NCBI GenBank assembly: GCA_038257035.1
Contig: JBBSJT010000022.1
Coordinates: 1 to 24,208 of the forward strand
DNA length: 24,208 bases
Direction: 5' to 3'
From: Chlamydiia bacterium
Lineage (GTDB): Bacteria > Chlamydiota > Chlamydiia > Chlamydiales > Parachlamydiaceae
Position 1 is the first letter of the stretch, and each line of letters begins with the position of its first letter. The translations under genes were made by a program, and so were the position numbers. This document shows, piece by piece, positions 46 through 23,507 of the stretch. The notes beneath the pieces are model-generated. The model worked only from the letters and a program-made list of their open reading frames with translations, had not been told where the DNA came from and did not search any database.

Positions 46-107
46 TTTTCGCGCTTTAGTGCGCTTCTCTGCGTCTCTGCGTCTCTGCGTTGAAAAAATC
101 ATATACG
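46..107. repeat. Right arm of an intergenic palindromic element (left arm not seen in window)
   Basis: TCGCGCTTTAGTGCGCT (related to motifs near 10207 and 23299), then 3x TCTCTGCG at 66-89, then TGAAAAAATCATATACG, which resembles the right terminus of the 13610-13727 element. Confidence 0.75.
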
Positions 108-228
108 TTTAAATAAGTTTTTTAACAGCATACTCTTAATTTTTCTTTAATTTTTTCAGTTTGAAGTAGCATCAGTATATACATGATTCTAATTCAACTT
201 GTGACATCAAGTTATCTTTGCGAGGAGG

Positions 229-840
229 TTAGAGGGGGAACCATGTGAAGTAGAGCGAAAGCACGCCCATGACAATCAGCAAACCACCTGCAAGCTCATT
301 AATCCGATGTACAGCCTTTGCATTGATGGTAAAGAGCATCGTGGCAAGAATAAGAATCAACCACCAAGCCAAAGATCCTATAAAAACACCTGCAGAAATA
401 ACAAAAGCTGTAATAAAATCGTATTCTAGGGAGTCAAGGCCAAGAGCTGCAAATATCCCTGCAAAGCTAAAAATAGTTAAGGGATTTGTGATAGTGACGG
501 TAAACATGATAAAAAAAATATGGGTCAAACCCCTTTCAATTTTTTTAGGCCCACTATTTTTTTTGGTATACAGAAGATATGTCCCAAAACCCATCAGGAT
601 AATAGAACCGAGGGTTTGAATCCACGTTTCATGAGATTTGATAAAGTCTAACAAAATTGCGATTCCAAGAAATGCAACAAAGGATGCAATGGCATCAGCA
701 ACAGCAATCCCAAGACCTGCTGCCACGCCAGATGCTTTTCCTTGAACCAAAATATAGCGCAGGCAAAGCATTCCGACAGCCCCCATAGGCATGCAGATAA
801 TTAAACCGATCAGAAATCCTTCCCCAAGTAAACTTAACAT
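229..840 (-). CDS. LysE/RhtB family amino-acid exporter
   Basis: 203 aa, hydrophobic; N-terminal GFLIGLIICMPMGAV, GLGIAVADA and TITNPLTI motifs typical of LysE. Confidence 0.88.
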   Translation of the reverse strand: MLSLLGEGFLIGLIICMPMGAVGMLCLRYILVQGKASGVAAGLGIAVADAIASFVAFLGIAILLDFIKSHETWIQTLGSIILMGFGTYLLYTKKNSGPKKIERGLTHIFFIMFTVTITNPLTIFSFAGIFAALGLDSLEYDFITAFVISAGVFIGSLAWWLILILATMLFTINAKAVHRINELAGGLLIVMGVLSLYFTWFPL

Positions 841-849
841 GAAGCCATA

Positions 850-1485
850 TTAAAGGATTAAAAATTTTAAAGTCCAAGCAAAAGATAGCACAGCTGCAAT
901 TACTATCAGGTAACCGCTAATTTTGTTCAATTTTTTTGCCGCAGAACTTTTGATTTTTCCCAAGAAATATGAAGAACTTGAAGAAACCATTATCCACCAA
1001 CTGATCGATCCCGCAAACACACCCATCGCTAAATGACCAATTGCAATGGGATCGTTTTCTAATGTGTCGATCCCCAAAGCAGTAAAAATGGCGACAAAAC
1101 TAAGAAGAGTCAAAGGATTTGTGAATGTAAGGATGAACATCATTAAAAAGACGAAAAAATAGCTTTTTTGAACGACAGCTTTTTCTTTTTCTTCTTTTTT
1201 TAAAGAAGAATTAATCGTGATAAGTCCAAAATAAAAGAGGAATAAGGAGCCAATTAATTTTAACCAAATATGATTGTCTTCAATAAAGCTAGTTAAGGTT
1301 GCAAGACCTATTGCTGTTAATGCACCGCAAGAAGCTTCGGCAAATGCAATACCAAGACCTGAAGCTATACCAAAACTTCTACCGCGGACAACAGAATATC
1401 GCAAGCAAAGAATGCCTGTTGGCCCCATTGGAATGGAAAGAGATAGCCCAATTAGGGATCCTTTAAGCAATAAGAATGGTAACAT
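850..1485 (-). CDS. LysE/RhtB family amino-acid exporter (tandem paralogue)
   Basis: IGLSLSIPMGPTG, GLGIAFAEA and LTFTNPLT motifs; start moved to ATG 1485 (MLPFLLLKG) so it aligns with the neighbouring paralogue. Confidence 0.87.
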   Translation of the reverse strand: MLPFLLLKGSLIGLSLSIPMGPTGILCLRYSVVRGRSFGIASGLGIAFAEASCGALTAIGLATLTSFIEDNHIWLKLIGSLFLFYFGLITINSSLKKEEKEKAVVQKSYFFVFLMMFILTFTNPLTLLSFVAIFTALGIDTLENDPIAIGHLAMGVFAGSISWWIMVSSSSSYFLGKIKSSAAKKLNKISGYLIVIAAVLSFAWTLKFLIL

Positions 1486-1664
1486 TTTGCAACTCTTTAT
1501 TGTAAGGCGATCTATATAATTAATTTTAATAGTATCAGTTATTTTCTTTAAAATCAAGCTAAATGATCTGACTTCCATGAGTTGTCTCCTTAGCAACTAC
1601 ATTAATTTTATTTCTTAAAACAGGTGTATTGCTAAAAAAGAAACATTAATTTAAAAAGAAAAAT

Positions 1665-2672
1665 ATGAATACAATATACTTAAAAAAAATTTATCTGACT
1701 CTTCTTTTAGCATCTGTAACTTTTGTACAAGCAGAAGAACTTGTCACACCACTTGGACTTCCAAAAGTACCTTTTCCGCAGGATAATCCTTACACTAAGG
1801 AAAAGGCAGAACTTGGAAGACGCCTCTATTTTGATCCTTGTTTGTCAGGGAACAAAGAAATCTCATGCGCAACCTGCCACGCTTTAGATCGTGCTTTTGC
1901 CGATCCAAACCCTGTTTCCATTGGAATTTTAGGAAGGAGCGGATCGCGTCATGCACCAACCGTAATCAATGCTGCATACAATCGTTTGCAATTTTGGGAT
2001 GGAAGGTCAACCTCCTTGGAGGATCAAGCAAAAGGTCCGATTGCAAACCATAATGAAATGTCTTTGTCGACAGATCCTGAGGTATCCTATGCTGAATGTC
2101 AAAAAAGAATCAAAGAACAAAAAGATTACTTGAAAATGTTCAAAGATGTTTTTGGAAATGAAGAGTGCAGTATGGATCAAGTAGCTCAGGCAATTGCAAC
2201 TTTTGAGAGGACTATATTGTCCGGTAATTCCCCCTACGATCGTTTCAAAAAGGGCGATAAAACAGCTATGACTGAAGAGCAAATTAACGGATATAAAGTT
2301 TTTAAGCGAGTGGGTTGTGAAAATTGCCATGCCGAACCTTTATTTACGGATGGACGCTTTTTAAACATTGGTGTTGGAATGGATGCAGTAAAACCCGATC
2401 TTGGTAGATTTGAAATTACCAAAGATGAAAAAGATTGGGGCGCCTTTAAGGTGCCAACATTGAGGGAATGTTCAAAATCCTATCCATACATGCATGACGG
2501 TTGTCATAAAACGCTTGAGGAAGTTATCGATTATTACGATAAAGGCGGAATTGCCAACAAAAATCTTCATCCTTTGATGAAACCTTTGCATTTAAGCGAT
2601 CAGGACAAAAAAGCATTGAAGGCATTCCTGGAAGCACTAAACGGTGAAGGCTGGCAACACATCAAGAGCTAA
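1665..2672 (+). CDS. Di-heme cytochrome c peroxidase (CcpA/MauG family), exported
   Basis: Signal peptide (..VTFVQA/EE), two CxxCH (CATCH, CENCH), LGRRLYFDP, QFWDGR, FKVPTLR, PYMHDG. Confidence 0.93.
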   Translation: MNTIYLKKIYLTLLLASVTFVQAEELVTPLGLPKVPFPQDNPYTKEKAELGRRLYFDPCLSGNKEISCATCHALDRAFADPNPVSIGILGRSGSRHAPTVINAAYNRLQFWDGRSTSLEDQAKGPIANHNEMSLSTDPEVSYAECQKRIKEQKDYLKMFKDVFGNEECSMDQVAQAIATFERTILSGNSPYDRFKKGDKTAMTEEQINGYKVFKRVGCENCHAEPLFTDGRFLNIGVGMDAVKPDLGRFEITKDEKDWGAFKVPTLRECSKSYPYMHDGCHKTLEEVIDYYDKGGIANKNLHPLMKPLHLSDQDKKALKAFLEALNGEGWQHIKS

Positions 2673-2724
2673 AGGTTTTTATTCGAAAATTATCATGTTG
2701 GAGTAGAACGTACGGAAATAGGGG

Positions 2725-2753
2725 TTGAAAAGTTCCAAAAGATAGAATATAAT
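2725..2753 (+). promoter_or_regulatory. Sigma-66/70-type promoter for aspS
   Basis: TTGAAA-17 nt-TATAAT, ending 30 nt before the ATG at 2784. Confidence 0.65.
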
Positions 2754-2783
2754 CCGAAGCAAAAACTACAAAAGAGACTCCTC

Positions 2784-4592
2784 ATGGACAGAATTTTATC
2801 ATCGGAATTAAAGAATCACCAAGACAAAGAGGTGATGGTGCGTGGCTGGCTAAATAATATACGTGCCATTGGCAAAGTGAGTTTTTTAATTTTACGAGAT
2901 AGAAACGGCCTGATCCAGGTCGTCATCAGCGACAAGGAAGAATTTAAAAAAGTAAAGGATATGCAACCCGGCACTATTTTGCAGATTATTGGCAAGGTTG
3001 CTGTTTCTACAGAGGCGGAACTTGGGGTTGAAATGATCGACCCAAAAATCACTGTAGAAGTGCCCATTAAAGAAGTGCCGCTCATTGAATTTTACAAACC
3101 TGAAATTAATTCCGACTTGGAATTTATTTTAGATAATCGACCAATCGCCTTAAGACAGCGAAAAATTCAAGCTGTTTTTAAAATTCAAGCAGAACTTGTC
3201 CACGCTTTTCGACTTTTTATGCACGATCAAATCCAAGCTGTTGAATATTTCGCCCCAAATATGATTGGAGCCTCATCTGAAGGCGGAGCTGAATTTTTTA
3301 ATGTCGATTATTTTGGGTATCCGGCAACCCTTGCACAAAGCAGTCAGCTTTATAAACAAATCATGGTGGGTGTTAACGAAAGAGTTTTTGCTCTCATGCC
3401 ATTTTTTAGAGCAGAAAATTCTCAAACGACAAGGCATTTGACCGAAGGCAAGCAATTTGAATTTGAAATGGGATTTTTTAACCATTGGCACGACATCATG
3501 GATGTTCAAGAAAATTGTATTAAGTTTATGATGAAACATCTTCATGCAACATGCGCAAAAGAAATTAAAATTCTAGACAATCAGATCATTCAAGCACCTG
3601 AAAATGTACCTTTTCCAAGAGTTACCTTTAAAGAAGCGCAAGAAATTTATTTTCAAAGAACAGGTCATGATGAGCGTGAAGAACCCGATTTAAGTCCAGC
3701 TGCCGAACGGGAGCTTTGCGCCTATGCCAGAGAGAATTTCCAAACAGACCTCATTTTTATTACCGACTGGAAAACAACGAAGCGTCCATTCTATGCCTAT
3801 CCTAACGATGAAAACCCTGAGATCAGCAACACTTTTGATTTACTTTGCGCAGGGACTGAAATTACTTCCGGAGGACAACGTCGTCACACACATGATTCGA
3901 TGTTAGAGGGGATTAAATCAAAGGCAATGAGCCCTGATGGATTCTCAGACTATTTAAGTATTTTTAAGCAAGGCATGCCCCCGCACGGTGGCTTTGGAAT
4001 GGGCTTAGAAAGATTAACAATGACGATCTTGAGATTAAAAAATATTAGAGAGACATCTCTTTTTCCGTCAGACCCTAAACGCATTGCAGGTAATCGCATT
4101 AAGGCTAAAATTTTCTACGGTTCCGAAAACATCCGTAACGAAATTATTCGTCTTTTAAAGCATTCAGAAATTGAATTTAAACACATGAGTCACGAGCCTA
4201 CTCCAACTTCTGAAGATTCAGCTGCTGTACGCGGAACAACTCTTCAAGAGGGTGTAAAGGCAATTATTTTACGTGGGAAAACAAGTAAAAAGAATTATCA
4301 GTTCAATATTCCTTCAAATTTAAAGCTCGACATGAAGGCTGTTGCTGAAGCTTGCGGTGAAAAATGTGAATTTGAAGATCCAAACGTCATTAGTGATCGC
4401 TTTGGTTTGGTTGTCGGCAGTGTTCCGCCATTTGGTCAATTGATGAATCTAGATACGTATTTTGACGAAAAGATTAAAGAATCACCAAGATCTGCTTTTA
4501 ACTGCGGTTTGGTTAAAGAATCGATCATTATGGATTCAAAAGATTTGTTTGCCCTTGTGAATCCAACCATCGGTAAATTCAGCAAGGAATAA
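2784..4592 (+). CDS. aspS: Aspartate-tRNA ligase, archaeal/eukaryal type (probably non-discriminating), with C-terminal YbaK/YeaK-like deacylase domain
   Basis: N-terminal OB fold (VRGWLNNIR..FLILRD), LAQSSQLYKQ, FRAENSQTTRHL, EITSGGQR, PPHGGFGMGLER; no bacterial GAD insert; about 155 extra residues with HEPTPT..RGTT..GVKAII and GSVPPFG. Confidence 0.88.
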   Translation: MDRILSSELKNHQDKEVMVRGWLNNIRAIGKVSFLILRDRNGLIQVVISDKEEFKKVKDMQPGTILQIIGKVAVSTEAELGVEMIDPKITVEVPIKEVPLIEFYKPEINSDLEFILDNRPIALRQRKIQAVFKIQAELVHAFRLFMHDQIQAVEYFAPNMIGASSEGGAEFFNVDYFGYPATLAQSSQLYKQIMVGVNERVFALMPFFRAENSQTTRHLTEGKQFEFEMGFFNHWHDIMDVQENCIKFMMKHLHATCAKEIKILDNQIIQAPENVPFPRVTFKEAQEIYFQRTGHDEREEPDLSPAAERELCAYARENFQTDLIFITDWKTTKRPFYAYPNDENPEISNTFDLLCAGTEITSGGQRRHTHDSMLEGIKSKAMSPDGFSDYLSIFKQGMPPHGGFGMGLERLTMTILRLKNIRETSLFPSDPKRIAGNRIKAKIFYGSENIRNEIIRLLKHSEIEFKHMSHEPTPTSEDSAAVRGTTLQEGVKAIILRGKTSKKNYQFNIPSNLKLDMKAVAEACGEKCEFEDPNVISDRFGLVVGSVPPFGQLMNLDTYFDEKIKESPRSAFNCGLVKESIIMDSKDLFALVNPTIGKFSKE

Positions 4593-4605
4593 ACTTAGGT
4601 GTTAA

Positions 4606-4624
4606 CAGCGGGTACTACCCGCTG
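4606..4624. terminator. GC-rich hairpin between convergent genes, possible bidirectional terminator
   Basis: CAGCGGGTA-C-TACCCGCTG with outer TTAGG/CCTAA; no strong U tract. Confidence 0.5.
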
Positions 4625-4657
4625 CCTAAAGCTTATTATCCCTTTGTATTTTTAATT

Positions 4658-5365
4658 TCATTCGATTTTTTTCATCAAGTCAAAAAATACTTCATTAGAA
4701 ATCGGACATTCGCCCCTATTTTTGTTTTGTTTAACCGAAGGATACGACAGAAAAATATCAAGTGATTTTAGGTTAAACTTTTCTGTCGTTAAATCCAAGT
4801 TTTCAGAGTTTCTTAATATTTGTTCAGCTTCCCAAGCAGACGAGGATACCCAAGACAATGCTTGTAATTTTATTCTTGCCCAACTTTCCCCATTAAACAT
4901 CCTATTTTTTTCAATTATGGTATTTTCATTACTGTTAATGGGAATTTTAAATTCTGATGTAATAATTTCTTTAAAAAGGTTTGTTGTCATTAAATTCCAC
5001 TTATCATGGTAAACCATTATCCCGCACAGATCAGATTTAACCATCGAATGTTTCATGTGCGCATCATTGCAAAGTGTTTTAAAATCAAGAACAGCTTTGT
5101 CATAACATTCTTTTTTAGCTGCTTCTAGTGAGTTAAGATTGTGTATTAATTCTTTAAAAGCAGAGACTTTTACTTTATCCTTGCCAAAAGAAAAACCCTG
5201 TGTCCATCGAGCAGGCTCTAAAGTTTTATTAGTGGATAAAAGGCATGTCTTTTGCCATGGGGTAAGGTAACTACAAAGAACATTTTGAAGATCTTCAAAT
5301 TCGAACACCTTGGCAGCAATTGATGGTGTATAAGAAATTTGAACGTTAGTATTAATTGATTGCAT
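4658..5365 (-). CDS. Hypothetical protein with N-terminal F-box-like motif (candidate effector)
   Basis: 235 aa ORF with GAGG RBS; DLQNVLCSYLTPWQKTCLLSTNKTL resembles the F-box pattern; S/T/N/Q-rich N-terminus. Confidence 0.6.
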   Translation of the reverse strand: MQSINTNVQISYTPSIAAKVFEFEDLQNVLCSYLTPWQKTCLLSTNKTLEPARWTQGFSFGKDKVKVSAFKELIHNLNSLEAAKKECYDKAVLDFKTLCNDAHMKHSMVKSDLCGIMVYHDKWNLMTTNLFKEIITSEFKIPINSNENTIIEKNRMFNGESWARIKLQALSWVSSSAWEAEQILRNSENLDLTTEKFNLKSLDIFLSYPSVKQNKNRGECPISNEVFFDLMKKIE

Positions 5366-5480
5366 ATTACCTCACTTATTTAAAGTGAGAATATAATTAT
5401 AACAAAATATTGTTAAGATAATATAAAGAAAAGTGAATTTATAGTAGGCTTTAGTTTGCTGTAACGAATTATTATATTCT

Positions 5481-5546
5481 AATTTGGAGTGCTGTGCCCT
5501 GGCACAGCTTTGTTTTCAGCCTGACCTGGCAGGCTGCTAAATCGCC
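5481..5546. repeat. REP-like double hairpin, family B copy 1
   Basis: AATTTGGAGT-GCTGTGCC-CT-GGCACAGC-TTTG then CAGCCTG-ACCTGG-CAGGCTG; colinear homology with about 16433-16503. Confidence 0.75.
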
Positions 5547-5591
5547 ATTTCTTCTAACGTAATAAATTTACTAAGGAGTGATCCTACAACA

Positions 5592-5658
5592 TAATGCAAA
5601 AGTAAAATTTGGAGTGCTGTAACAGAGTTACAGCACTCCAAATTTTACCTTTACATTA
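5592..5658. repeat. 67-bp palindrome of two head-to-head family B halves
   Basis: 32-bp arms (2 mismatches) around AGA; arm TAATGYAAARGTAAAATTTGGAGTGCTGTAAC also found at 16419-16450. Confidence 0.85.
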
Positions 5659-5701
5659 CGTTATTACATCAACCCTGCATGCTATCATCTGTTAGGTCGG
5701 T

Positions 5702-6931
5702 CTACTTTTTAACTTTGGCTTGAATTTTCTTAAAAGGCCTTAGTTTTGTTTTTTTGCCGGGTGCAGGTTCTTTTTTTGGCGCCACCTTTGGCTTTGCAGC
5801 AGCTTTTGGTTTCGGCTTTGCGGCAGCTTTAGGGACAGCTTTTGCTTTTGGAGCAGTTTTTGCTTTTGCAGCAGCTTTTGGCTTCGCGCTTTTTGATTTG
5901 GAGTTCACATTTGCTTTTGAAATTGCTGATTTTGCAGATTTGGCTTTAGGAACTTCGTCAAAATCCTCTTCATCGTCTTCATCTTCATCATCATCAAAAC
6001 TAATTTTAGATTTTGAAGCTGATTTTTTGGAGTCTTTTGAATCGTCTTGCACCCATTTTGACGATAGATTGCGAAGAACACTCAGTTTTTGGCTTAGAGT
6101 CTCCGGCTGGTCTGAATGTGATGCCAGTTTTCTATTTGAGTTTGCAATAATTTCTTCTTCAGATTCAAATTTTGTAGAGAAGGTAATCGCAGATGCACTG
6201 GAAATATCAGGAATGAAAAGAAAGGGCAGGGCAAGCGCCGGAACAGTTGTGTAAACATCGGTTGAAACATGAGATTCTACTTCTTGCTTGATCGCTTGTT
6301 TAGGTGGACGTCCACGTTTCGGTCTTGGATTTAAGGCTTCATTTGAATAATAAGTTTTAGCTTTAGCGACAAGGATTTTTCTTGCGGCAACGACTTCTTT
6401 TGATGCCTTGACAATGAAAAGCTCTTTTTTTAATTTCTCAATGAGTAATTTAGGAAGATCAAGATCTTCTTCAAAGACAAAATGGAAGTGGCTGTTACGT
6501 AACCATTCGATAATTCTGATACGCGATCTTTCTTGGTAGTATTGTTGCCATTTTTCAAGTTCAGAAAGATGATCATAGATGAATTCAAGAAAGTTTTCAC
6601 GGGCTTCTTTTGACTGAATGATATCTAATAATTTTTCTTTTGTATCGATATCGTAAATCTTTTCGTTTACAAAGCCTTCCATGATTTTTTTTGTTTCATA
6701 AAAAGTCAATTTTGGAATTAAGCAGTAGCGTTCGGGATGGGAAGCAATTTCTTTTTCTACCACAATGACATCAGCTTCTGTTTTATCTAAGTTGATATAG
6801 ATAATAAAACCTTCCTGGCGATCTAAATAAAAATCTCTTTCATCGTCAGATTTTGTAAAAGCTTCCATTAATCGATGAGAGCGTAGTATAAGTGGATTTT
6901 GAGGCTCTGTTTTGAGTTTTGTAGACATCAT
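5702..6931 (-). CDS. UPF0158 family protein (CT429-like) with acidic tract and Lys/Ala/Pro-rich tail
   Basis: QNPLILRSHRLMEAFTKSDDERDFYLDR, EALNPRPKRGRPPK; located downstream of glyA-clpP-dapF as in Chlamydia. Confidence 0.85.
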   Translation of the reverse strand: MMSTKLKTEPQNPLILRSHRLMEAFTKSDDERDFYLDRQEGFIIYINLDKTEADVIVVEKEIASHPERYCLIPKLTFYETKKIMEGFVNEKIYDIDTKEKLLDIIQSKEARENFLEFIYDHLSELEKWQQYYQERSRIRIIEWLRNSHFHFVFEEDLDLPKLLIEKLKKELFIVKASKEVVAARKILVAKAKTYYSNEALNPRPKRGRPPKQAIKQEVESHVSTDVYTTVPALALPFLFIPDISSASAITFSTKFESEEEIIANSNRKLASHSDQPETLSQKLSVLRNLSSKWVQDDSKDSKKSASKSKISFDDDEDEDDEEDFDEVPKAKSAKSAISKANVNSKSKSAKPKAAAKAKTAPKAKAVPKAAAKPKPKAAAKPKVAPKKEPAPGKKTKLRPFKKIQAKVKK

Positions 6932-7755: not shown

Positions 7756-7756
7756 T

Positions 7757-9883: not shown

Positions 9884-10067
9884 TAAGCTCCTTGAATTAA
9901 ATCCAAATATACGAATTTAAAGCTAAAGGCGCAGTCTATCAAAACATCAATAATTACGCAAGTTACAAAAAATATGATATCGTATGCAATTACACAGGTT
10001 ACAAAATGCATGTTAAGGTAGGCATTTTTTTACCGCGAAGGATGCGAAAAAAATATACCGTTTCTAA

Positions 10068-10284
10068 GGATTTTTTTACCGCGAAGGGCGCGAAGGAGCG
10101 CGCTGAAGCGCGAGAAGAAGCGCGAAGAAGCGCAGCTTATGCTGCGAAAAGAACAGCAGGTGATTTAAAATAAACGTTAAAAAATAAAGTAATACGAAGT
10201 TCTTACTCGCGCTTTTAAGCGCGCTCTCTTCGCGTCCCGCAGCGAAGCTTGCGCTTCTTCGCGTCCTTCGCGGTAAAAAAATCC
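10068..10284. repeat. Intergenic palindromic element, CGCGAAG-unit type
   Basis: 34-bp terminal inverted repeats GGATTTTTTTACCGCGAAGG(G/A)CGCGAAG(G/A)AGCGC with 2 mismatches; AT-rich core; colinear with 23171-23379; degenerate outer arms near 10025-10046 and 10297-10318. Confidence 0.9.
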
Positions 10285-10321
10285 CCACTAACTATGGCGT
10301 TCTTCGTAGTGAAAAAAAAGT

Positions 10322-11413
10322 TTAGCTAAAAGTACTGCAGAAGGCTTCAAGTTCTTGCATAGAAGGACTGTGTCCAAAACGTACATAAAAGCCGGCCGTT
10401 GCAATGGCGGCCATTAAAATGTCTTTTTTTTCAAGCTCGTACAAAAGAGCATTGCAGTAACCCGCGTTAAAATTATCTCCCGCACCGGTGGTTAATACCG
10501 GATCTTTTACGTGCAGGGTTTTCAGATGAATCTGATCATCAGAGTCTTGTGAAATGGCAAATGTGGCGTGATGCACAAGGAGCCTAAAAACTCTAAGTTG
10601 ATTAAAGAGCTTTTTAGTAGAATCTTTAATTGTTTGAATTGATTGGGTTTGGTATTCCATTCCAAATAAATTACTAACTATCTCAGCTTCTGCAATATTT
10701 AATCCTATAATAACATTGTAAAACTTGTTTAATTCGGCAAGTGTGACTAGCGCCTCTTTTAGATCTTTATGAGTTCTTTTGGAGGGATCCGCAAAATCAA
10801 CAAACAAGATGCGAGAAAAATTTTTTTTTGAAAAATTCGGCGCTTGTTGTAAAATATTTTTCCAAATATCTGTTAAATGTGGCAACATTGTCCAATTGGC
10901 GGAAACAAAAAGATGGGAATTGTCAAGAATTTCAAAAAGGTTTTTTTGCCCAATTTCTGACAGGAGATGAGCGAATGTTATTTTTTTTAAAGAGTTCATC
11001 TTACCAAGAATGATTTTTCCATCTTTAAATTCGAGGGCCTCAGTTTTTGCGCTTGATGCTAAAGGAAAAACTTGACTACAGCGGTTTGCCATTTGTTCAA
11101 AAATTGGTTCTACTTGGGGGTCACCAATGGCACCTGCAAAGACAATGGTGTGGCCGCCTTCCAGAAGAGCATTAGTAAAAATTGGGGCATTTCCACCAAG
11201 TTTTGTTTGTTTGACGACAAGTTCAAAGTTACAACTTTTATTCGATGCATCAGTTAATTTTTTGCCAAAACTTTCGATTGTTTGAAAATAAGTTTGGTTG
11301 TTGGCATCTAAAGCTTTATCTACAACAGAAATGATTTCATCTGTAAAACCGTCAAATCCAATAAAACAATTTTTTGGTTGAATCTTTTTAAAAAGTTTTG
11401 ATAAGTGTTCCAT
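10322..11413 (-). CDS. PfkB/ribokinase-family carbohydrate kinase
   Basis: GFDGFTD, KLGGNAPI and C-terminal TTGAGDNFNAGY anion-hole signature. Confidence 0.85.
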   Translation of the reverse strand: MEHLSKLFKKIQPKNCFIGFDGFTDEIISVVDKALDANNQTYFQTIESFGKKLTDASNKSCNFELVVKQTKLGGNAPIFTNALLEGGHTIVFAGAIGDPQVEPIFEQMANRCSQVFPLASSAKTEALEFKDGKIILGKMNSLKKITFAHLLSEIGQKNLFEILDNSHLFVSANWTMLPHLTDIWKNILQQAPNFSKKNFSRILFVDFADPSKRTHKDLKEALVTLAELNKFYNVIIGLNIAEAEIVSNLFGMEYQTQSIQTIKDSTKKLFNQLRVFRLLVHHATFAISQDSDDQIHLKTLHVKDPVLTTGAGDNFNAGYCNALLYELEKKDILMAAIATAGFYVRFGHSPSMQELEAFCSTFS

Positions 11414-13284: not shown

Positions 13285-13515
13285 ATGTCCAAAAAAATAG
13301 TATTTTTATTTTGCCTTTTCGCTCCATTATTCTCTTATGCAGCAGAGATTGCTCCTCAAAAAAAAGAAGTTGGTCGATACCAAATGGTTTCACATGATAC
13401 CGGTCACTTATACCTCTTAGATACAGCCACAGGTCAAGTGTGGAGGTCAGAGACTATGCAAGACTGGTATTATCATGATACATGGGTACCCCAAATTACA
13501 TCCTTCAAAGACTAA
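13285..13515 (+). CDS. Small exported hypothetical protein
   Basis: 76 aa, signal peptide (..PLFSYA/AE), GRYQ..YLLDTATGQVW beta-rich motif. Confidence 0.7.
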   Translation: MSKKIVFLFCLFAPLFSYAAEIAPQKKEVGRYQMVSHDTGHLYLLDTATGQVWRSETMQDWYYHDTWVPQITSFKD

Positions 13516-13609
13516 AATACATTTTAAGGGTGGTATTGGTAATATATACAGGTGCTACTTGAAATTGAAAATTTGCAATGTTCATAAAACTAATTATTAT
13601 AACATCTTC

Positions 13610-13720
13610 GATTTTTTACAGTGAGGCAGTGAGAAGCTGCATGAGGACAGTGAGGGGATCTGAATTCATTGCCTCTCACTGATCTCATGCAGCTTCTCAC
13701 TGCCTCACTGTAAAAAAATC
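13610..13720. repeat. Intergenic palindromic element, CAGTGAGG-unit type
   Basis: 34-bp perfect arms TTTTTTACAGTGAGGCAGTGAGAAGCTGCATGAG; imperfect pairing continues to the central TGAATTCA; termini GATTTTTT/AAAAAAATC. Confidence 0.9.
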
Positions 13721-13895
13721 ACATACGCTATATTAATTTGCCTTCGAACCATACTTTTTTATTGGTTGTAGCCAAATGTAAATAAGGATTTATTTTAACT
13801 GATATGAATAGGGTCAAAAAAACTCCTATTGCGGTAAAAACTATTTTTGAATATGTTTCTTGATTTTCAAGATAAACCATAAGAGGAGTACAAAA

Positions 13896-16514: not shown

Positions 16515-16548
16515 TAGGAATGAGTAAAAGAGGGTTTTTATGTCTTAA

Positions 16549-16603
16549 GGTCCGAAGGACCGCTATATGATAGCCTAGGTCGAAGCGAAGCGGGAGGCCT
16601 AGG
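16549..16603. repeat. Two-hairpin REP-like unit (single copy in window)
   Basis: GGTCC-GAA-GGACC, spacer GCTATATGATAG, CCTAGG(TC)...GCGAAGCG...(GG)CCTAGG; abuts the tRNA 3' end. Confidence 0.45.
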
Positions 16604-16609
16604 GGAAAA

Positions 16610-16682
16610 CGGACCGAGCAGGATTCGAACCTGCGACCACCCGCTTAGAAGGCGGGTGCTCTATCCACTGAGCTATCGGTCC
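16610..16682 (-). tRNA. tRNA-Arg (anticodon TCT), CCA not encoded
   Basis: Minus strand GGACCGATAGCTCAGTGGATAGAGCACCCGC-CTTCTAA-GCGGGTGGTCGCAGGTTCGAATCCTGCTCGGTCCG, a complete 73-nt cloverleaf. Confidence 0.97.
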
Positions 16683-17351: not shown

Positions 17352-17358
17352 AGGAGTT

Positions 17359-18183
17359 ATGATGAGCCAAGTGTTAGTGAAAAATTTTTATATTGGAAAA
17401 GGTCAACCTTTAGCCATCATGTCAGGGCCTTGTGTCATTGAAAGTGAAGATCATTGCATGAGGGCAGCGGCCACTTTAAAAGAAATTTTTTCAAAATTTC
17501 CAATGATCAATTTTATTTTTAAATCAAGTTACGACAAGGCAAATCGCACTTCGATCCATTCTTTTAGGGGTCCTGGAATTGATGAGGGTTTACGCATTTT
17601 AGAAAAAGTAAAAAACGAATTTGATTTACCCATCGTTTCCGACATTCATGAAAGAGAAGAAGTTATAGCTGCAGCGACAGTGTGTGACATTTTACAAGTT
17701 CCTGCATTCTTAAGCCGTCAGACCGATCTAATTTGTGCTGCTGCAAAAACTGGCGCCGTAATCAGTGTCAAAAAAGGGCAGTTTTCGGCTCCTTGGGATA
17801 TGGAAAATGTTGTTTCGAAAATTAAAGAGTGTGGAAATGATCGAATTATTTTGGTAGACAGGGGAGTCTCCTTTGGTTATAACAACTTAGTCAGCGATAT
17901 GCGTGCCATACCCATCATGCAAAATTTTAATGTGCCCGTATGTTTTGATGCCACTCATTCAGTACAGTTACCAGGCGGCAAGGGCACATCATCCGGTGGT
18001 CAACGTGAATTTATTCCGCATCTTGCAAAAGCTGCCGTAGCCGCAGGCGCAAATGCTATTTTTATGGAAGCTCACAATGATCCGGCATGTGCAAAAAGTG
18101 ATGCCTCATCCGTATTGGACTTTAAAGATTTGCCGGCCCTTTTAGAAAAACTTCAACAAATCTATGCGATTGTTAATGAATAG
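17359..18183 (+). CDS. kdsA: KDO-8-phosphate synthase
   Basis: GPCVIESE, KSSYDKANRTS, QVPAFLSRQTDL, KKGQF, FDATHSVQLPG. Confidence 0.97.
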   Translation: MMSQVLVKNFYIGKGQPLAIMSGPCVIESEDHCMRAAATLKEIFSKFPMINFIFKSSYDKANRTSIHSFRGPGIDEGLRILEKVKNEFDLPIVSDIHEREEVIAAATVCDILQVPAFLSRQTDLICAAAKTGAVISVKKGQFSAPWDMENVVSKIKECGNDRIILVDRGVSFGYNNLVSDMRAIPIMQNFNVPVCFDATHSVQLPGGKGTSSGGQREFIPHLAKAAVAAGANAIFMEAHNDPACAKSDASSVLDFKDLPALLEKLQQIYAIVNE

Positions 18184-18934
18184 TCACCAAAACTGTAGCA
18201 ACACAACTAATAAAACACGTAAGCGACTAACGCTCATACCTGTTATTGCAGGTTTTATTATCTTGCCGTTGCTTAGTTTTTTTTGCTTCAAACTTCTGAC
18301 GCATTTAAGCGCTGAAACCCTAATTTTATATGAAGCAATCACAATGAAAACAGGGGAAAAAAAGGAAGATCAAGCCAAAGCCGACTACCTTGTCAGACAG
18401 ACAAGGCACAAAGTTCAAAAGCAACTTTTATTTACAGAAAATGAACAACGTATGGAATTGCAATTACTAGCTAATGACACTCAAATGATCTATGATCATT
18501 CGTCACTCCAAACAAAAATTGTTGAACAGATGAATGGCATTGTCTGCACGATGCAAGAGGAGCTCTACTACATTTTACCCGATGGCAGGGAAGCTTGTTT
18601 TTTTAATGAAGAGTCGCTTCTGATTCGAAACGAAGATCCTAAAAATCCCGCCTCCTATGTTTCTAAAACAACCAAAGGGATTGTTCCGATGCAGATCATT
18701 CGCCACATGGTTGCAGATAAAGGCTTTTACGATTACAAAAGTGATCTTTTTTTTGCAGAAAATGTTAAAATTGAACGTTTTACAACTTCTTCCCATGAGT
18801 TAACAGCATCTCTTAATCAAATGAAAAAACTCATGAATGGTATTGCCGATTCGATAGAATTTTCTTTGGATGGAAAAAAATTAAATTTTAAAGCAAACAA
18901 ATTAAAAGCGACACTAAACACGAGCTCCAAATGA
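18176..18934 (+). CDS. Membrane-anchored protein, LptC-like by position
   Basis: Single N-terminal TM then beta-rich region; lies in the kdsA-X-Y-lptB operon; ATG 18176 overlaps the end of kdsA. Confidence 0.55.
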   Translation: MNSHQNCSNTTNKTRKRLTLIPVIAGFIILPLLSFFCFKLLTHLSAETLILYEAITMKTGEKKEDQAKADYLVRQTRHKVQKQLLFTENEQRMELQLLANDTQMIYDHSSLQTKIVEQMNGIVCTMQEELYYILPDGREACFFNEESLLIRNEDPKNPASYVSKTTKGIVPMQIIRHMVADKGFYDYKSDLFFAENVKIERFTTSSHELTASLNQMKKLMNGIADSIEFSLDGKKLNFKANKLKATLNTSSK

Positions 18935-20466
18935 ATGTCACGACAAAAGGTCTTTTTATTTCTTGTTTTTCAGTTTTTTTTCTTTTTTCACATTCTTCTG
19001 CTTTAGCAGAAGATGAGGGCATGATGTTTATTGATTCAGGGGAGGCAAATTATAATGGCAGGGAAATTGTCTTAAGTAAGGATGTTGTTGTAGAGCATGA
19101 AATTGGTAAAATTTGTGCTCACCATATTGTTTTAACTCCTAAAAATGATCAGAAGAAAATTCGTTTTACGCATTTAAAAATGAGTGATGCTGTAAAGTTT
19201 TTGCTAAAAGATGGCGGTCAGCTTTTGTGCGAAAAGGCGGATCTTGATTATTTAAAATTAACAGGAAAATTTACGGGTAGTCAGCAGAATGAATATGTCG
19301 TGTATACGGAAAGTTGCAAGGGAAACCAAGATAAACGTATGCCGCTTGTCCTTAAGGCGTTAGAAATGAATGTCTTGCTAAATATTTTAGAAACCGGTGC
19401 TAGTGCTTCTCATTGTATTAGTGAAATGAGGGCAGATCAGAATGTGACCCTCAATTATAATCATGACCTTATTGCAAATTCAGACCATGCCGTTTATCAG
19501 CGCTTGGAAACATCTATTAGTGCAGAATCATCAAAGGATCCAAGACAAAACCCCGGCCAGATTTGCCTTACGGCAGCCACGACAAATGGAATATGCCAAA
19601 TTACAAATCGTAACGGAGACTTGATAAAAGCCTCTAAAATTGAACTTGACACCTTAAAAAAAGATTTGACGTTTTTTGATCCCAAAGGCTTTTTCAAGAT
19701 GATGGGGGCTAATGCAGTTGAGAAGGTATATTTTGAAAGCGATTTACTAAAATGGGAAAATCGTCAAAATCTTCTTGTTTTTATAGGTAATGTTACCGTC
19801 CATCAAAAAGTTTTCGGAGAACTTCAAAATCAAAATCAAGTAAAACTCCATTATCATGAAGAATTGGGCAAGAAAAAAATAAAGCTTGTTGAAAGCGTAG
19901 GTGAGACGGTCATTTCCCACATAGATTCAGAAAAACAACACCAGCACACCTTGGTTTCTTACGGAAAAGTGATTGCAGATCATTTAAACTTGAAAACAAC
20001 AATTGATAGCCCGCTTGAAAACGGTGAAGTTATTGAAGGTATGCAGATTTATTTTAACGATCTATTTGGTGAAATTTACGCAGATAAAGCAATTTTGGAT
20101 TATTTACCTCTTAATGGGGTGATTAAGCTTGAAAAGCTTACTCTGCTCGGTCACGTAAGAATATTGAATCGATCATCTGTAAACCCTGAAGAATCAGAAG
20201 CTTTTTTACAGTATGCTTTAAGTGATGTTGCTACCTTTTATCCTGCCAACAATGAATTGGTAATGAGTTCCAATGGTGCGGGAAGGGTTCTTTTTTATGA
20301 TAAAGCCAATAATCTTCAAGTCAGTGCTCCCGGCGTTAAAATAAAAAGAGATGGGATGACAAAAAAAGAATCGATTAAAGGTGTGGGCGATGTCAGATTT
20401 AGTTTGGAAAATTCAGAACTCGAAAAGCTCAAAACACACTTTTCTTTAGAACCCGCAAAAGGATAA
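18931..20466 (+). CDS. Exported LptA/OstA-like beta-jellyroll protein (long)
   Basis: Signal peptide (..SSALA/ED), repeated segments like GEIYADKAIL and LVFIGNVTV; directly upstream of lptB. Confidence 0.6.
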   Translation: MNVTTKGLFISCFSVFFLFSHSSALAEDEGMMFIDSGEANYNGREIVLSKDVVVEHEIGKICAHHIVLTPKNDQKKIRFTHLKMSDAVKFLLKDGGQLLCEKADLDYLKLTGKFTGSQQNEYVVYTESCKGNQDKRMPLVLKALEMNVLLNILETGASASHCISEMRADQNVTLNYNHDLIANSDHAVYQRLETSISAESSKDPRQNPGQICLTAATTNGICQITNRNGDLIKASKIELDTLKKDLTFFDPKGFFKMMGANAVEKVYFESDLLKWENRQNLLVFIGNVTVHQKVFGELQNQNQVKLHYHEELGKKKIKLVESVGETVISHIDSEKQHQHTLVSYGKVIADHLNLKTTIDSPLENGEVIEGMQIYFNDLFGEIYADKAILDYLPLNGVIKLEKLTLLGHVRILNRSSVNPEESEAFLQYALSDVATFYPANNELVMSSNGAGRVLFYDKANNLQVSAPGVKIKRDGMTKKESIKGVGDVRFSLENSELEKLKTHFSLEPAKG

Positions 20467-20471
20467 TAGCA

Positions 20472-21197
20472 ATGAAAACATGCCTTGAAGTAAAAGATCT
20501 TGAAAAAAGTTATGGGTCAAGAAAAGTCGTCAATGGTTTAAGCTTTGAGATTGGGCAAGGTGAGATTGTTGGTCTTTTAGGGCCTAATGGAGCCGGTAAA
20601 ACAACAGCTTTTTACATGACGATTGGGCTTATTAAGCCTGATGCCGGCAAGGTGATTTTTCAGGACAAGGACGTGACAAACGATCCCATCCATATGCGTG
20701 CAAGGATGGGAATGGGGTATCTTGCTCAAGAGCCATCGGTTTTTCGTTATTTGACCGTAGAAGAAAATATTATGAGCATCCTTGAATGTTTGTCCTTAAC
20801 AAAAAGTGAAAGAAAATTACGACTGGAAGAGCTTTTGGGCGAACTACACTTGGAAAAACTTGCAAAGAAAAAAGCAATCGCACTTTCCGGTGGCGAAAGA
20901 AGAAGGCTTGAAATCACACGTGCTTTGGTGACAAATCCAAGTTTTCTATTACTGGACGAGCCTTTTGCTAATATCGATCCGATCTCTGTTCAGGAAGTAA
21001 AGCACATGGTGACTTTGCTTTCCAAAAAGAATATTAGCATCTTGATCACGGATCATAATGCTCGCGAAATTTTCTCTGTTGTACACCGCAGCTATATTGT
21101 GCGAGAAGGTAAAGTCATGATGAGTGGTAACGTTGATGAGCTTGTTAATAATGAAGAGGCAAGACGCACCTATCTTGGATTAGAATTTAAAATGTAG
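20472..21197 (+). CDS. lptB: LPS export ABC transporter ATP-binding protein
   Basis: GLLGPNGAGKTT, GYLAQEPSVFR, LSGGERRRLEI, LLDEPFA, ITDHN. Confidence 0.96.
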   Translation: MKTCLEVKDLEKSYGSRKVVNGLSFEIGQGEIVGLLGPNGAGKTTAFYMTIGLIKPDAGKVIFQDKDVTNDPIHMRARMGMGYLAQEPSVFRYLTVEENIMSILECLSLTKSERKLRLEELLGELHLEKLAKKKAIALSGGERRRLEITRALVTNPSFLLLDEPFANIDPISVQEVKHMVTLLSKKNISILITDHNAREIFSVVHRSYIVREGKVMMSGNVDELVNNEEARRTYLGLEFKM

Positions 21198-21355
21198 GTA
21201 ACAATTGAATACCTTTAACTTTTAGAAAACAGCAAAATTACAAATATTAGAAATAATCCTTCGAAAGCCTGATGAGGAAAACATGAGGTTTTTGCCTGCT
21301 TTAACAAAAACTTCCAGTCAGTATATGATCTAGACCCTACAATCTATGACATCTT

Positions 21356-21524
21356 CGATTTTTAACAGGATATGCAGGATCGCTTCGCGACAAAGTCGCT
21401 TCGCGGCAGGATCGCTAAAGCGGCAGGATAATATCCATCTCTAATATATCACTAAAGGTTGATATTATCCTGCCGCTTTAGCGATCCTGCCGCGAAGCGA
21501 TCCTGCATATCCTGTTAAAAATCG
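21356..21524. repeat. Intergenic palindromic element, CAGGAT-unit type
   Basis: 64-bp perfect arms apart from a 16-nt insert (21390-21405) in the left arm; 25-nt spacer; termini CGATTTTTAA/TTAAAAATCG. Confidence 0.92.
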
Positions 21525-21626
21525 TATCGTATTGGTTATAATAATAGATTTTAAGGTTTCTTTTCCACTTTCAAGAAGCAAAATATTACAGATGATCTTT
21601 GAAAGTAAAAAATTTGTTCTTTTCTA

Positions 21627-22097
21627 TTATTTGTTTACGATGTCTTGGGGTTTAAAGAAGAAATCGATTTCTATTTTTGCGTTCTCTAAACTGTCAGAGC
21701 CATGAACGGCATTTTTTGTGATCGATTCGGCAAAGTCTTTGCGAATCGTATTAGGTGCGGCTTTTTTTGGGTCTGTTGCTCCCATGATTTCACGGTTTTT
21801 AACTACGGCATTCTCACCATCCAAAACCATAACAACAACAGGTCCTGCAGTCATCGTTTCAATGAGTTCGCCAAAAAAAGGTCGCTCTTTATGTACGGCA
21901 TAAAAATCTGAGGCTTGTTTTTTGTCGAGTTTGGTCATTTTGAGAGCAGCAATTTTTAGTTTATTTTCTTCAAAACGAGCAATTATTTCACCGATGTGTT
22001 GATTGGCTACTGCGTCCGGCTTAATGATTGAAAGTGTTTGTTCAGCTTGTAACATTGAAGTGCTAACCAAAAGAGCAAAAAAAAGTTTTTTTAGCAT
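21627..22097 (-). CDS. ndk: Nucleoside diphosphate kinase paralogue with signal peptide
   Basis: [47 protein letters not shown]. Confidence 0.93.
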
Positions 22098-22652
22098 TTA
22101 AGATCCTAATTTTAAAAAGTTTTCAAATATTTTAAGTCCATGTTCCGTTGAAACGGATTCAGGATGAAATTGTACCCCTTCAAGCAAAAAATGATTATGC
22201 CGAAGACCCATGATTTCACCTTCGCATTCTGCAGTAATTGTTAAATCTTTGGAAAGTTTTTCTTTTTCTACAATAAGTGAGTGATATCTTGTGGCCAAAA
22301 AGGGGGTTTCAATCCCTTGAAAAAGGCCTTTTCCATCATGAGTAATTTTGCTAACTTTGCCATGCATGGGCAATTTTGCACGTATAACGCGAGCCCCAAA
22401 AAGCTCACCGATGCATTGATGTCCAAGGCAAATGCCAAGAATGGGAATTTTTTTTAGATATTTTAAAATAAGAGTCTTTGAAATTCCGGATTCAGAAGGT
22501 GTGCCTGGGCCTGGGCCTATGACGATGTGTGTGGGGGTAAAATTGATTTCGGTAGCTTCATTTTGAACAACCTGTACAATACTTCCAAGCATTTGGAAGT
22601 ATTGTACAGTATTGTAAGTGAAAGAATCGTAATTATCGATTAATAGGATCAT
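22098..22652 (-). CDS. pabA: Aminodeoxychorismate/anthranilate synthase component II (PabA/TrpG)
   Basis: MILLIDNYDSFTYN, GPGPG, GICLGHQ, RYHSL, QFHPES; pabA versus trpG cannot be settled from the sequence. Confidence 0.88.
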   Translation of the reverse strand: MILLIDNYDSFTYNTVQYFQMLGSIVQVVQNEATEINFTPTHIVIGPGPGTPSESGISKTLILKYLKKIPILGICLGHQCIGELFGARVIRAKLPMHGKVSKITHDGKGLFQGIETPFLATRYHSLIVEKEKLSKDLTITAECEGEIMGLRHNHFLLEGVQFHPESVSTEHGLKIFENFLKLGS

Positions 22653-22654
22653 TA

Positions 22655-23086
22655 CTATCTTGTACGAGGACACATTTCTTCAGGTTTAAAGAAGAATTTA
22701 ATTTCTTCGCGTGCAGTTTCAACCGCATCAGAACCATGAACTGCATTTTCATCAATGCTTGTTGCGATATCTGCTCTGATTGTTCCGGGAGTTGCTTTTT
22801 TAGGGTCTGTTGCGCCCATTAAGTCTCTATTTTTAGCAATGGCGTCAGGGCCTTCTAAAGCTAAAATAAGTACAGGACCTGTTGTCATAAATGAGACCAA
22901 GTCTTTAAAGAAAGGGCGCTCTTTGTGAACTGCATAAAAGCCTTCAGCTTGTTCCTTTGACAAGTGTTGCATTTTTGCTGCAACAATGCGAAGACCGTTG
23001 TTTTCAAAACGGGAAATAATGTTTCCGATTTTGTTAACGCCTACAGCGTCCGGTTTAATAATAGATAATGTTTGTTCAATTGCCAT
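22655..23086 (-). CDS. ndk: Nucleoside diphosphate kinase (cytoplasmic)
   Basis: [33 protein letters not shown]; start could also be 23095. Confidence 0.95.
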
Positions 23087-23119
23087 GTGTTTCATCCTTT
23101 GCTAAGTTTTAAAGGGATG

Positions 23120-23128
23120 ATTATAGCA
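23120..23128 (-). promoter_or_regulatory. Extended -10 promoter element for the ndk-pabA-ndk operon
   Basis: Minus strand TGCTATAAT about 35 nt upstream of ndk. Confidence 0.45.
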
Positions 23129-23170
23129 ATATACATTATTATCTGCATGCTTTTTTTTACAGTTGTGTGG

Positions 23171-23379
23171 GGATTTTTTTACCGCGAAGACCGCGAAGAA
23201 AGACGCGAAGGCACGCGAAGAAGCGCGCTAACGCGCGAGAGAACAGCAAGATATTAAAATAAATAGTTAAATAATAATTAATAGCTTGTTGTTCTTTCTC
23301 GCGCTTTTAGCGCGCTCTTCGCCCCCCTTCCCGCAGCGCAAGCTTGCGCTTCTTCGCGGTCTTCGCGGTAAAAAAATCC
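23171..23379. repeat. Intergenic palindromic element, CGCGAAG-unit type
   Basis: 30-bp perfect terminal inverted repeats GGATTTTTTTACCGCGAAGACCGCGAAGAA; interior colinear with 10068-10284; outer inverted repeat extends to about 23147/23404. Confidence 0.9.
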
Positions 23380-23507
23380 AAACAAGACTGTAAAAAAAAT
23401 ACATAAGGCCGTAACGTTCTTCGTGGTGAAAGAAAGCTGTAGAGAAAAATTGAATAGTTTTGTATGATTTATCTCTTATAAGTATCACCAAAAAAAGAAC
23501 CTAATCT

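Follow-up and report, generated by a model that had tools for sequence, protein, structure and literature searches.

The window analyzed in this work is an entire contig of 24,208 nucleotides (nt) (JBBSJT010000022.1, here C22) from the assembly GCA_038257035.1 of a Chlamydiia bacterium, and our subject is a set of five intergenic hairpin elements within it and their relation to genes of the GxxExxY family. The source assembly comprises 2.37 Mb in 210 contigs, with 36% G+C and a completeness of 95.8%; we refer to it as G000, to its contigs by C numbers, and to two congeneric genomes as G001 and G002. The gene content of the window is of the housekeeping kind and includes genes for LysE, a class II aminoacyl-tRNA synthetase (tRNA-synt_2) with an editing domain, ClpP, SHMT, a CT398-like protein, RNase P RNA, NDK, PheT, and others. 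No transposase gene was found in the gene annotation of the 24,208 nt. The window also holds no GxxExxY gene above the TIGR04256 cutoff, and the copies described here therefore represent a gene-less form.

Five intergenic palindromes with a common core grammar

A reading of the window made from its sequence only had proposed five elements with one shared grammar. Direct reading confirmed four of these (10068-10284, 13610-13720, 21356-21524, and 23171-23379) as complete palindromes, whereas the fifth, at 46-107, is a right arm only, since the contig starts within its loop. The surviving loop sequence (..gtcaatcgtttttcgtggcttagaaaagagtttaatttatgg..) is the one that follows complete left arms on C88, C24, and C31. 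The core of each element is built from G/C-A-T5-8, then ACC, AAC, or ACA, a series of tandem units, a loop, the mirrored units, and A5-8-T-C. The units are purine rich, 7 to 9 nt long, and of the form C-R-C/G-N-R-A-G/T, with two to five in tandem per arm; those in the window are CGCGAAG (type A), CGCAGAG (type B), CAGTGAG (type C), and CAGGAT (type D). The purine-rich arm is 5' on either strand. In the inverted-repeat search, the complete elements had arms of 34 to 53 nt with 89 to 94% complementarity, and each folds as one long hairpin, with z scores of the single-strand minimum free energy (MFE) between -9 and -25 against mononucleotide shuffles under both RNA and DNA parameters. The gene contexts were as first described: tandem at 10068 and 13610, convergent at 21356, and divergent at 23171. 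The features are as follows, where M and M' refer to a 27-nt terminal repeat treated below.

1-45, unstranded: remnant of the loop of element 1, B1 type (CGCAGAG), with the left arm beyond the contig start
46-107, unstranded: right arm of element 1, B1 type, with a local GCGC hairpin, three CTCTGCG units, GTTG, and A6-TC
108-179, minus strand: linker module (108-152) and outer terminal repeat M' (153-179) of element 1, matched in the M scan at C22:153, minus strand
10024-10067, unstranded: outer left head of element 2, T7-ACCGCGAAGGATGCG..., then a TATACCGTT box, pairing with 10285-10319 in the fold
10068-10284, unstranded: A-type core of element 2, CGCGAAG units, 217 nt, a long hairpin with RNA MFE -110.9 and z -9.2
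10285-10319, unstranded: outer right head of element 2 (..CGTTCTTCGTAGTG-A8), from direct reading and the fold
13545-13609, plus strand: outer terminal repeat M (13545-13571) and linker of element 3, with a sigma-70-like TTGCAA-16-TATTAT directed toward the core
13610-13720, unstranded: C-type core of element 3, CAGTGAG units, 111 nt, a near-perfect hairpin, z -14.7
13721-13775, unstranded: right linker and degenerate M'-like end of element 3, seen by eye and below the M-scan threshold
21329-21355, unstranded: left linker module of element 4 (tagaccctacaatctatgacatcttc), common to many D-type copies
21356-21524, unstranded: D-type core of element 4, CAGGAT units split by small GC hairpins, 169 nt, z -23.5
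21525-21587, unstranded: right linker and degenerate M'-like end of element 4 (TTTTCCACTTTCAAGAAGCAAAATAT), with the M'-like copy at 21561-21587, seen by eye and below the M-scan threshold
23151-23399, unstranded: element 5, an A-type core (23171-23379) within an outer palindromic layer (T8-ACAG...CTGT-A8), z -21.7
23413-23432, unstranded: solo outer head (AACGTTCTTCGTGGTGAAA, reverse complement TTTCACCACGAAGAACGTT) adjoining element 5

The motifs GATTTTT and AAAAATC, which had been taken for the ends of the elements, turned out to be inner boundaries. A-type copies have a further outer palindromic layer (10024-10319 and 23151-23399 in the window), formed by one or two extra heads that consist of a T-run, ACCACGAAG, and then the TATACCGTT box, giving onion-like palindromes such as those on C62 and C19. 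Conservation outside the T-run fades within about 17 nt because the linkers differ in length, and was of no use for locating ends. The 60-nt linker of element 1 is also present on C8, C99, and C142, and the C-type core DNA of element 3 has 45 matches within G000. Promoter-like hexamers point toward the cores at 13572-13600 and 21301-21329; their overall count of 52, against 43±6.6 in shuffles, is within noise, and they were not used as evidence.

The hairpins form a large intergenic repeat population

We scanned the 2.37-Mb genome for a run of at least five T residues plus a 12-mer, followed by the reverse-complement 12-mer (at most two mismatches) and a run of at least five A residues. This genome-wide search, which the sequence-only reading had called for, yielded 224 pairs that merged into 197 loci, revealing many further copies that together cover 36,567 nt, or 1.55% of the genome. 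The A-run-first mirror geometry gave 34 and 35 pairs in the reversed and complemented genome, and 20-nt block shuffles gave 2 to 5; the T-run-first arrangement is thus about 6 times commoner than its mirror and 45 to 110 times commoner than in the shuffles. Within the window, the corresponding counts were 5 against 0 and 0. By unit, 74 of the 197 loci belong to family A, 37 to B (CGCAGAG and CGCAAAG), 33 to D, and 31 to C; the remainder carry CACGAAG, CACAAAG, CACCGAG, CACAGAG, or mixed units, making at least five unit families overall. Arm units occurred at 65 of 420 contig ends, compared with 31 of 2,000 random windows. This enrichment implies that the repeats break the assembly, and the number of loci is therefore a floor.

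Open reading frames (ORFs) of at least 100 amino acids make up 84% of the genome, yet 176 of the 197 loci lie outside them. A flanking gene on either side could be placed for 175 loci, of which 62 lie between convergent, 88 between tandem, and 25 between divergent genes, compared with 252, 1,165, and 290 of all 1,707 adjacent gene pairs. This enrichment of convergent pairs, together with the very stable stems, speaks for host regulatory structures (terminators, mRNA stabilizers, or small-RNA genes) that are kept for their function. So do the two-sided compensatory changes, of which the C family has 55 against 27.3±3.6 expected and the D family 35 against 16.0±3.0; in these two families, palindromic symmetry appears to be kept through such changes. 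However, we consider a host function highly improbable. A T-run before the stem and an A-run after it on both strands is the reverse of the geometry of a Rho-independent terminator, a candidate that was rejected on this ground, and the terminator-type arrangement is the rarer one by the sixfold margin given above. A terminator scan found 13 sites where 13.7 were expected, with only one weak site in an element. No element matched an Rfam family at the gathering score, the window's only matches being RNase P, one tRNA, and Acido-Lenti-1. In addition, the hairpins also occupy divergent and tandem spacers, are absent from the same spacers of the congeners, and vary patchily in copy number across the family (see below). 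The earlier statement that the elements are not simply terminators is in keeping with these results.

Two features of the window stand apart from the hairpins. The Acido-Lenti-1 small-RNA match (16548-16603, minus strand; 39.2 bits, with a gathering score of 37) adjoins a tRNA gene at 16610-16682. Two NDK paralogues (21627-22097 and 22655-23095) flank a class I glutamine amidotransferase gene, all on the minus strand of the window within 21627-23095.

The hairpins are missing from the corresponding spacers of relatives

The A-type head GATTTTTTTACCGCGAAG, allowing one mismatch, has 108 matches in G000 and 0 or 1 in each of 30 relatives, including both congeners, and C-type DNA shows the same lineage-restricted distribution. 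We then applied a general grammar pattern (T5, 1 to 3 nt, CRCRRAG, 1 to 3 nt, CRCRRAG) to 61 genomes of the family. It was present in 36 of them, with counts from 1 to 358 and a single control match (in G181). G000 had the 358 matches, five other genomes had 171, 80, 48, 39, and 30, and the congeners had 5 and 2. Each high-copy genome has its own dominant unit.

The congeners keep the gene order of G000 at about 70% DNA identity, a level at which spacer lengths and the presence of hairpins can be compared rather than empty sites at the level of single bases. The window spacers that hold complete elements measure 503, 1,197, 455, and 413 nt in G000 and 125, 675, 44, and 145 nt in G002, with similar values in G001. 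Three further spacers on C7 exceed those of the congeners by about the size of an element, and the C7 spacer that contains a gene-bearing element (described below) measures 854 nt, compared with 410 nt in G002, an excess of about two-thirds of the 663-nt element. In line with the comparison of orthologous spacers that had been proposed, hairpins were absent from all eight congener regions fetched from G001 and G002. A relative of about 93% identity, known from metagenome contigs, was informative at two window sites, its contigs breaking at 9977-10362 and 13515-13818. There, position 23155 is bridged to 23433 by 57 other letters that replace 277 nt (23156-23432), and 21197-21654 is replaced by about 150 nt that contain an M-like piece but no D core. 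These observations indicate that the elements were acquired once the lineage had separated from the two sampled congeners, and that G000 and its relative of about 93% identity are still not alike in them.

GxxExxY genes lie between arms of the same grammar

The sequence-only reading had named, as a candidate trans-acting factor, genes of the GxxExxY family flanked by similar arrays, and had proposed a search for copies that enclose an ORF. G000 has two GxxExxY genes above the TIGR04256 cutoff of 35, at 140.5 and 138.1 bits. The gene at C7:1100-1507 lies inside an A-type element (C7:926-1588), and that at C17:14838-15215 has a degenerate left head upstream and a complete B-type copy directly after it; the same grammar thus flanks both of the GxxExxY genes of G000. 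The suggested link was borne out in G000, and it recurred at chlamydial loci and across phyla. Of the cross-phylum loci, 60 of 80 had the gene enclosed on either side by arrays of purine-first units, and 7 of 80 showed the reverse geometry; for chlamydial loci, the corresponding numbers were 13 of 27 and 0 of 27. Two further chlamydial GxxExxY genes have CAGGAT arms. The 80 loci came from Acidobacteriota, Chloroflexota, Planctomycetota, Proteobacteria, Bacteroidota, Verrucomicrobiota, Gemmatimonadota, candidate phyla, and two methanogen groups, and were found with a six-sequence alignment, which biases them toward the CACAGAG protein clade. A locus in another genome (L030) reads GGGGA-T10-ACCACAGAGGCACAGAG..gene..CTCTGTGGT-A9-TC and has ends of the type seen in the window (GA-T10-ACC...A9-TC). 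The closest relatives of the G000 proteins are entries titled Chlamydiales, Parachlamydiaceae, Waddliaceae, and Chlamydiota.

Two loci illustrate how such cassettes may change. At L041, in a relative, a full gene is followed in tandem by two copies that are internally deleted to an increasing extent and stand between the same arms, an arrangement that points to internal deletion as a route to gene-less forms. At L028 (C78 of G136), purine- and pyrimidine-rich arrays (GGAAGGAAGAAG..., and CTATCTCACTTATCCA 10 times) lie between the arm and the gene or outside the arm, at 1200-1420 and 1880-2230 of the locus; unit arrays can evidently expand greatly.

We also asked how the arm unit is distributed on a tree of 102 proteins, from which five with internal stops had been dropped beforehand and in which 70 rows carried a unit label. 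The unit changes 20 times on the tree, compared with a mean of 27.5 and a minimum of 25 after shuffling. Clades were seen for CACGAAG, CACGGAG, C[AG]CAAAG (which includes the C17 gene; support, 99), and CAGGAT (support, 98). Within the family, four of the five high-copy relatives have an intact GxxExxY gene. In G185, the arms around the gene start with T5-ACCACAGAG, the head of that genome's approximately 80 gene-less arm matches, and the second unit of the right arm is one base off the commonest form. Genomes of the family with no trace of a GxxExxY gene had no pattern matches in six of six cases, whereas those with a trace had matches in seven of nine, although kin among them are not independent.

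The GxxExxY protein resembles a minimal PD-(D/E)XK nuclease

The GxxExxY protein, 125 to 135 amino acids long, is encoded in the loop of the full-length element, and PF13366 matches it at 1e-40. Across 17 sequences, four residues (E37, D76, K88, and Q100) never vary and two (E86 and Y104) almost never do, a set that amounts to a PD-(D/E)XK plus QxxxY-like motif. A structure model with a predicted local distance difference test (pLDDT) score of 92.9 was compared with known structures by Foldseek. The matches were almost exclusively PD-(D/E)XK nucleases (lambda exonuclease, AdnAB/AddAB domains, Cas4, and Hjc), and they were weak, with a best E value of 3.7e-3 and none at or below 0.001. Among solved structures, none was related by sequence, the best being Cas4 (4ic1; E = 0.73). 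Together, the residues and the model suggest that this protein represents a PD-(D/E)XK nuclease in minimal form, of the RecB/Cas4/lambda-exonuclease type.

A similar cassette surrounds four-helix-bundle genes

Intervening sequences (IVS) of 23S rRNA are known to be processed by RNase III. Some carry an ORF, and in Coxiella the 23S rRNA IVS is described as bearing an S23p/four-helix-bundle ORF (PMC4990558), a family that corresponds to PF05635. Chlamydial four-helix-bundle genes (TIGR02436 / 23S_rRNA_IVP), among them the G000 copy on C166, stand between inverted arrays of short units such as GAGTTCG, CGGGCA, GCTAAAG, and AAATTCC, which are unrelated to the GxxExxY units. For 8 of 11 such genes, the inverted repeat was exact over 11 nt or more. 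These cassettes tie the architecture to the ORF-bearing 23S rRNA IVS. As in an IVS, which is regarded as selfish, a GxxExxY cassette has a small ORF in the loop of a long stem, and chlamydial genes of the IVS protein family sit between inverted tandem-unit arrays. Unlike an IVS, the elements of the window lie between protein genes rather than in rRNA, lack an ORF, and have other units; none of the five is at a 23S rRNA insertion site (helix 25 or 45), and all have protein or RNase P genes as neighbors.

B, C, and D cores are carried within a separate terminal-repeat element

Elements 1, 3, and 4 of the window sit inside a MITE (miniature inverted-repeat transposable element) that is bounded by a 27-nt terminal repeat, M (TATACTGGTGCTACTTGAAAGTGAAAA); element 4 has the degenerate right repeat only. 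Window copies of M lie at 153-179 (minus strand) and 13545-13571 (plus strand). A scan that allowed six substitutions, and that missed the degenerate copy seen by eye at the right of element 4 (21561-21587), found 105 copies in the genome and 0 in the control, with 17 M..M' pairs spanning 150 to 617 nt. Across G000, B, C, and D cores form the center of M-bounded composites, whereas type A is mostly without M. The earlier view that the end signal is fixed while the unit diversifies needs changing for the B, C, and D families, in which the T-run is not the outer end and M lies outside it. Between M and the B, C, and D cores, we recognized about nine recurring kinds of linker module, shuffled among the families. 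In three other genera, M-like repeats (33, 36, and 12 copies) bound palindromic MITEs of 165 to 190 nt that have no T-run core, in genomes with few or no hairpin-pattern matches. M is therefore an independent MITE.

MITEs that target TA and have no known transposase exist, the Correia elements of Neisseria being an example. The M carrier appears to resemble them in its terminal inverted repeat of about 27 nt starting from TATA, its TA junctions, its size of 150 to 300 nt, and the lack of a cognate transposase in the assembly. An alternative is that the hairpins are ordinary MITEs, moved by a transposase that recognizes M and inserts at TA, with the hairpin cores as passengers and the GxxExxY gene as cargo in an IVS-like cassette for expression or processing. 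The M boundaries of the B, C, and D cores, the coreless M-bounded MITEs of other genera, and the shuffled linkers are all as this alternative would have it. TA precedes 66 of the 105 M copies and abutting M elements join at ..CCAGTA|TATACTGG.., although these flanks are ambiguous because M itself starts with TATA. The four-helix-bundle genes in cassettes of the same form with other units fit as well, as does the lack, in the 95.8% complete assembly, of a cognate GxxExxY gene for the C and D units.

Other observations are harder to reconcile with ordinary MITEs. Family A, the most abundant with 74 or more loci, is mostly not bounded by M, and the GxxExxY copies have no flanking M. Gene-less hairpins also abound without M in other families and phyla, and G185 combines its roughly 80 arm matches with no M. 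A cognate insertion sequence with M ends was not found in the 210 contigs: DDE_3 had no matches, and no M-like sequence lay within 3 kb of the one DDE_Tnp_1 gene or the three rve genes. Transposase_1 also had none, a blank that is uninformative since control genomes gave none either. We consider it unlikely that such a transposase is the sole mover of the elements. Nevertheless, the B, C, and D cores lie within an independent MITE bounded by terminal inverted repeats, and this carrier could move them without GxxExxY. Part of their spread in G000 is probably hitchhiking of this kind, which as an account of these three families is a serious alternative.

The RAYT systems of the genome are distinct, and palindromes are nested in palindromes

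Repetitive extragenic palindromic (REP) elements and their composite form, REPIN, are described as high-copy intergenic palindromes associated with a REP-associated tyrosine transposase (RAYT) of the Y1 HUH class (PMC3116915 and PMC3337134). G000 has nine Y1_Tnp matches at seven loci (on C29, C105, C119, C48, C25, C7, and C68). The hairpins are REPIN-like in that they are short intergenic palindromes of tens to hundreds of copies, in lineage-specific families, with nesting and clustering, and in that their repeats also enclose a protein gene, or a few of them. Nonetheless, it appears very improbable that they are REP/REPIN elements mobilized by the resident RAYTs. Each Y1_Tnp locus is flanked by its own, different GC-rich palindromes, and no T-run hairpin locus or M copy occurs within about 750 nt of any of the seven. 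A REP of the C105-RAYT type is inserted in the loop of a D-type element (C58:7278-7628), which identifies the REPs as a separate layer, and across phyla the arms accompany GxxExxY rather than Y1 genes. The REPIN form, an imperfect palindrome of 20 to 40 nt in inverted pairs, does not fit either: the cores are single hairpins of 100 to 300 nt whose arms are arrays of tandem 7- to 9-mers on a T-run/A-run base, and the associated gene encodes a predicted PD-(D/E)XK nuclease, not an HUH transposase, within the loop of one long hairpin. The genuine RAYT-REP systems of G000 thus stand apart from the hairpin elements.

The presence of at least seven separate REP-RAYT systems is itself an unusual number for a 2.4-Mb chlamydial genome. 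The window contains a palindromic repeat at 5460-5680 (arms 5574-5623 and 5627-5676; core GTTACAGCACTCCAAATTTTAC) that resembles sequences beside the Y1_Tnp genes of C48 and C68 and is probably a REP of one of these systems. A further repeat family (..tgtagcgtaggttttaacctgcgcatgtttttgcaggtttcaacc..) occurs inside M repeats and near the C48 Y1_Tnp gene, at C6:24393, C103:2378, C128:723, C128:892, and C8:20440.

Cores also sit at the apex of other hairpins, on C31, C60, and C143, with nesting on C62 as well. A double-hairpin module of about 110 nt (CCCTCTTTGCAAAnTGCAAAGAGGG plus AAAATTGTTTTGnnAAAACAATTTT) was seen only in A-type loops, in eight of eight copies and in both orientations (C5:29842, C7:17500, C7:20514, C37:4933, C55:7211, C56:4587, C86:2596, and C101:4297). 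Its two orientations would mean either that the arms have recombined and so flipped the loop or that one more nested element is present. In all these layers, the common theme is that DNA inserts into the apical loop of a palindrome already present, or is exchanged there. Bacterial interspersed mosaic elements (BIMEs) of enterobacteria are mosaic arrays of REP units and fixed linker motifs. The hairpins share this modularity, with several kinds of palindromic core and a small set of recurring linkers, and are unlike BIMEs in their other sequences, much longer stems, outer terminal repeat, and link to a nuclease gene.

Interpretation and implications

The five loci of the window are probably gene-less, MITE-like members of a GxxExxY hairpin family, selfish DNA that would have entered its spacers after the split from the congeners. 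The proposal of the sequence-only reading, that these are non-autonomous copies of a mobile system, is upheld by the many copies, the empty congener spacers, the polymorphism against the closer relative, and the link to GxxExxY; it fails with respect to the outer end of the B, C, and D families, which is M.

For movement, we suggest a possible scheme, of which the central step, that the nuclease recognizes the arm units or an extruded hairpin and starts copying, is tentative and, in our view, less likely than not. The GxxExxY nuclease would recognize the repeated units on both arms, or a hairpin or cruciform whose extrusion the weak T:A base of the stem would help. It would then break the DNA at the recognized arms or structure, and host replication or repair would copy the element into new AT-rich intergenic sites, preferably the loops of existing palindromes.

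Several points weigh against this interpretation and the scheme. Movement, cleavage, and binding are all predictions from sequence. The copies show no sign of ongoing activity because they are old and diverged: median nearest-neighbor identity is 80% in family A, 88% in B, 90% in C, and 91% in D, and only two copies reach 98%. The B family has no excess of compensatory changes (28 versus 26.8), and that in C and D can partly reflect shared descent. Filled and empty sites were compared, but they include no base-precise pair. Under the criterion used, 20 of the 80 cross-phylum genes and 14 of the 27 chlamydial genes have no such arms, and G193 (85% complete) has 39 pattern matches and only a decayed gene. 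The gap in cognate genes for the C and D units, noted above, counts in the same direction. The protein tree is poorly resolved, with 6 of 97 branches starred, and covariation of unit and protein, which joint inheritance alone would produce, is a sign that a gene moves with its arms rather than evidence of binding. The four-helix-bundle genes in the same type of cassette suggest that the hairpin may be the vehicle and the gene only its cargo. Finally, a lone nuclease cannot join DNA, and integration must therefore rest on host functions.

In the literature searched (on GxxExxY, PF13366, IVS proteins, and Parachlamydiaceae repeats), we found no published description of GxxExxY hairpin elements. 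The location of B, C, and D cores inside an independent M MITE and the layered outer heads are new. A more far-reaching proposal, which we regard as doubtful on present evidence, is that these elements belong to an undescribed class of prokaryotic mobile DNA. In such a class, a minimal PD-(D/E)XK nuclease encoded in the loop would read its own arm units, unit and protein would drift together by single-base steps, and copying would be directed by structure into the loops of other palindromes; it would extend over most bacterial phyla and some archaea and share its hairpin vehicle with the four-helix-bundle genes of IVS.

G000 is a useful test case for specificity, because a single background combines several families of units, two copies of full length, a MITE carrier that is separate, and RAYT-REP systems that are independent. 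If the nuclease does mobilize the hairpins, they would form a system of transposition or homing that spans phyla, uses no DDE, HUH, serine, or tyrosine enzyme, and is annotated in thousands of genomes as "GxxExxY protein." A large family of unknown proteins would thereby gain a function, many of the assembly breaks seen in metagenome-assembled genomes would be explained, and the old puzzle posed by rRNA intervening sequences that bear an ORF would be connected with a hairpin cassette of general occurrence.

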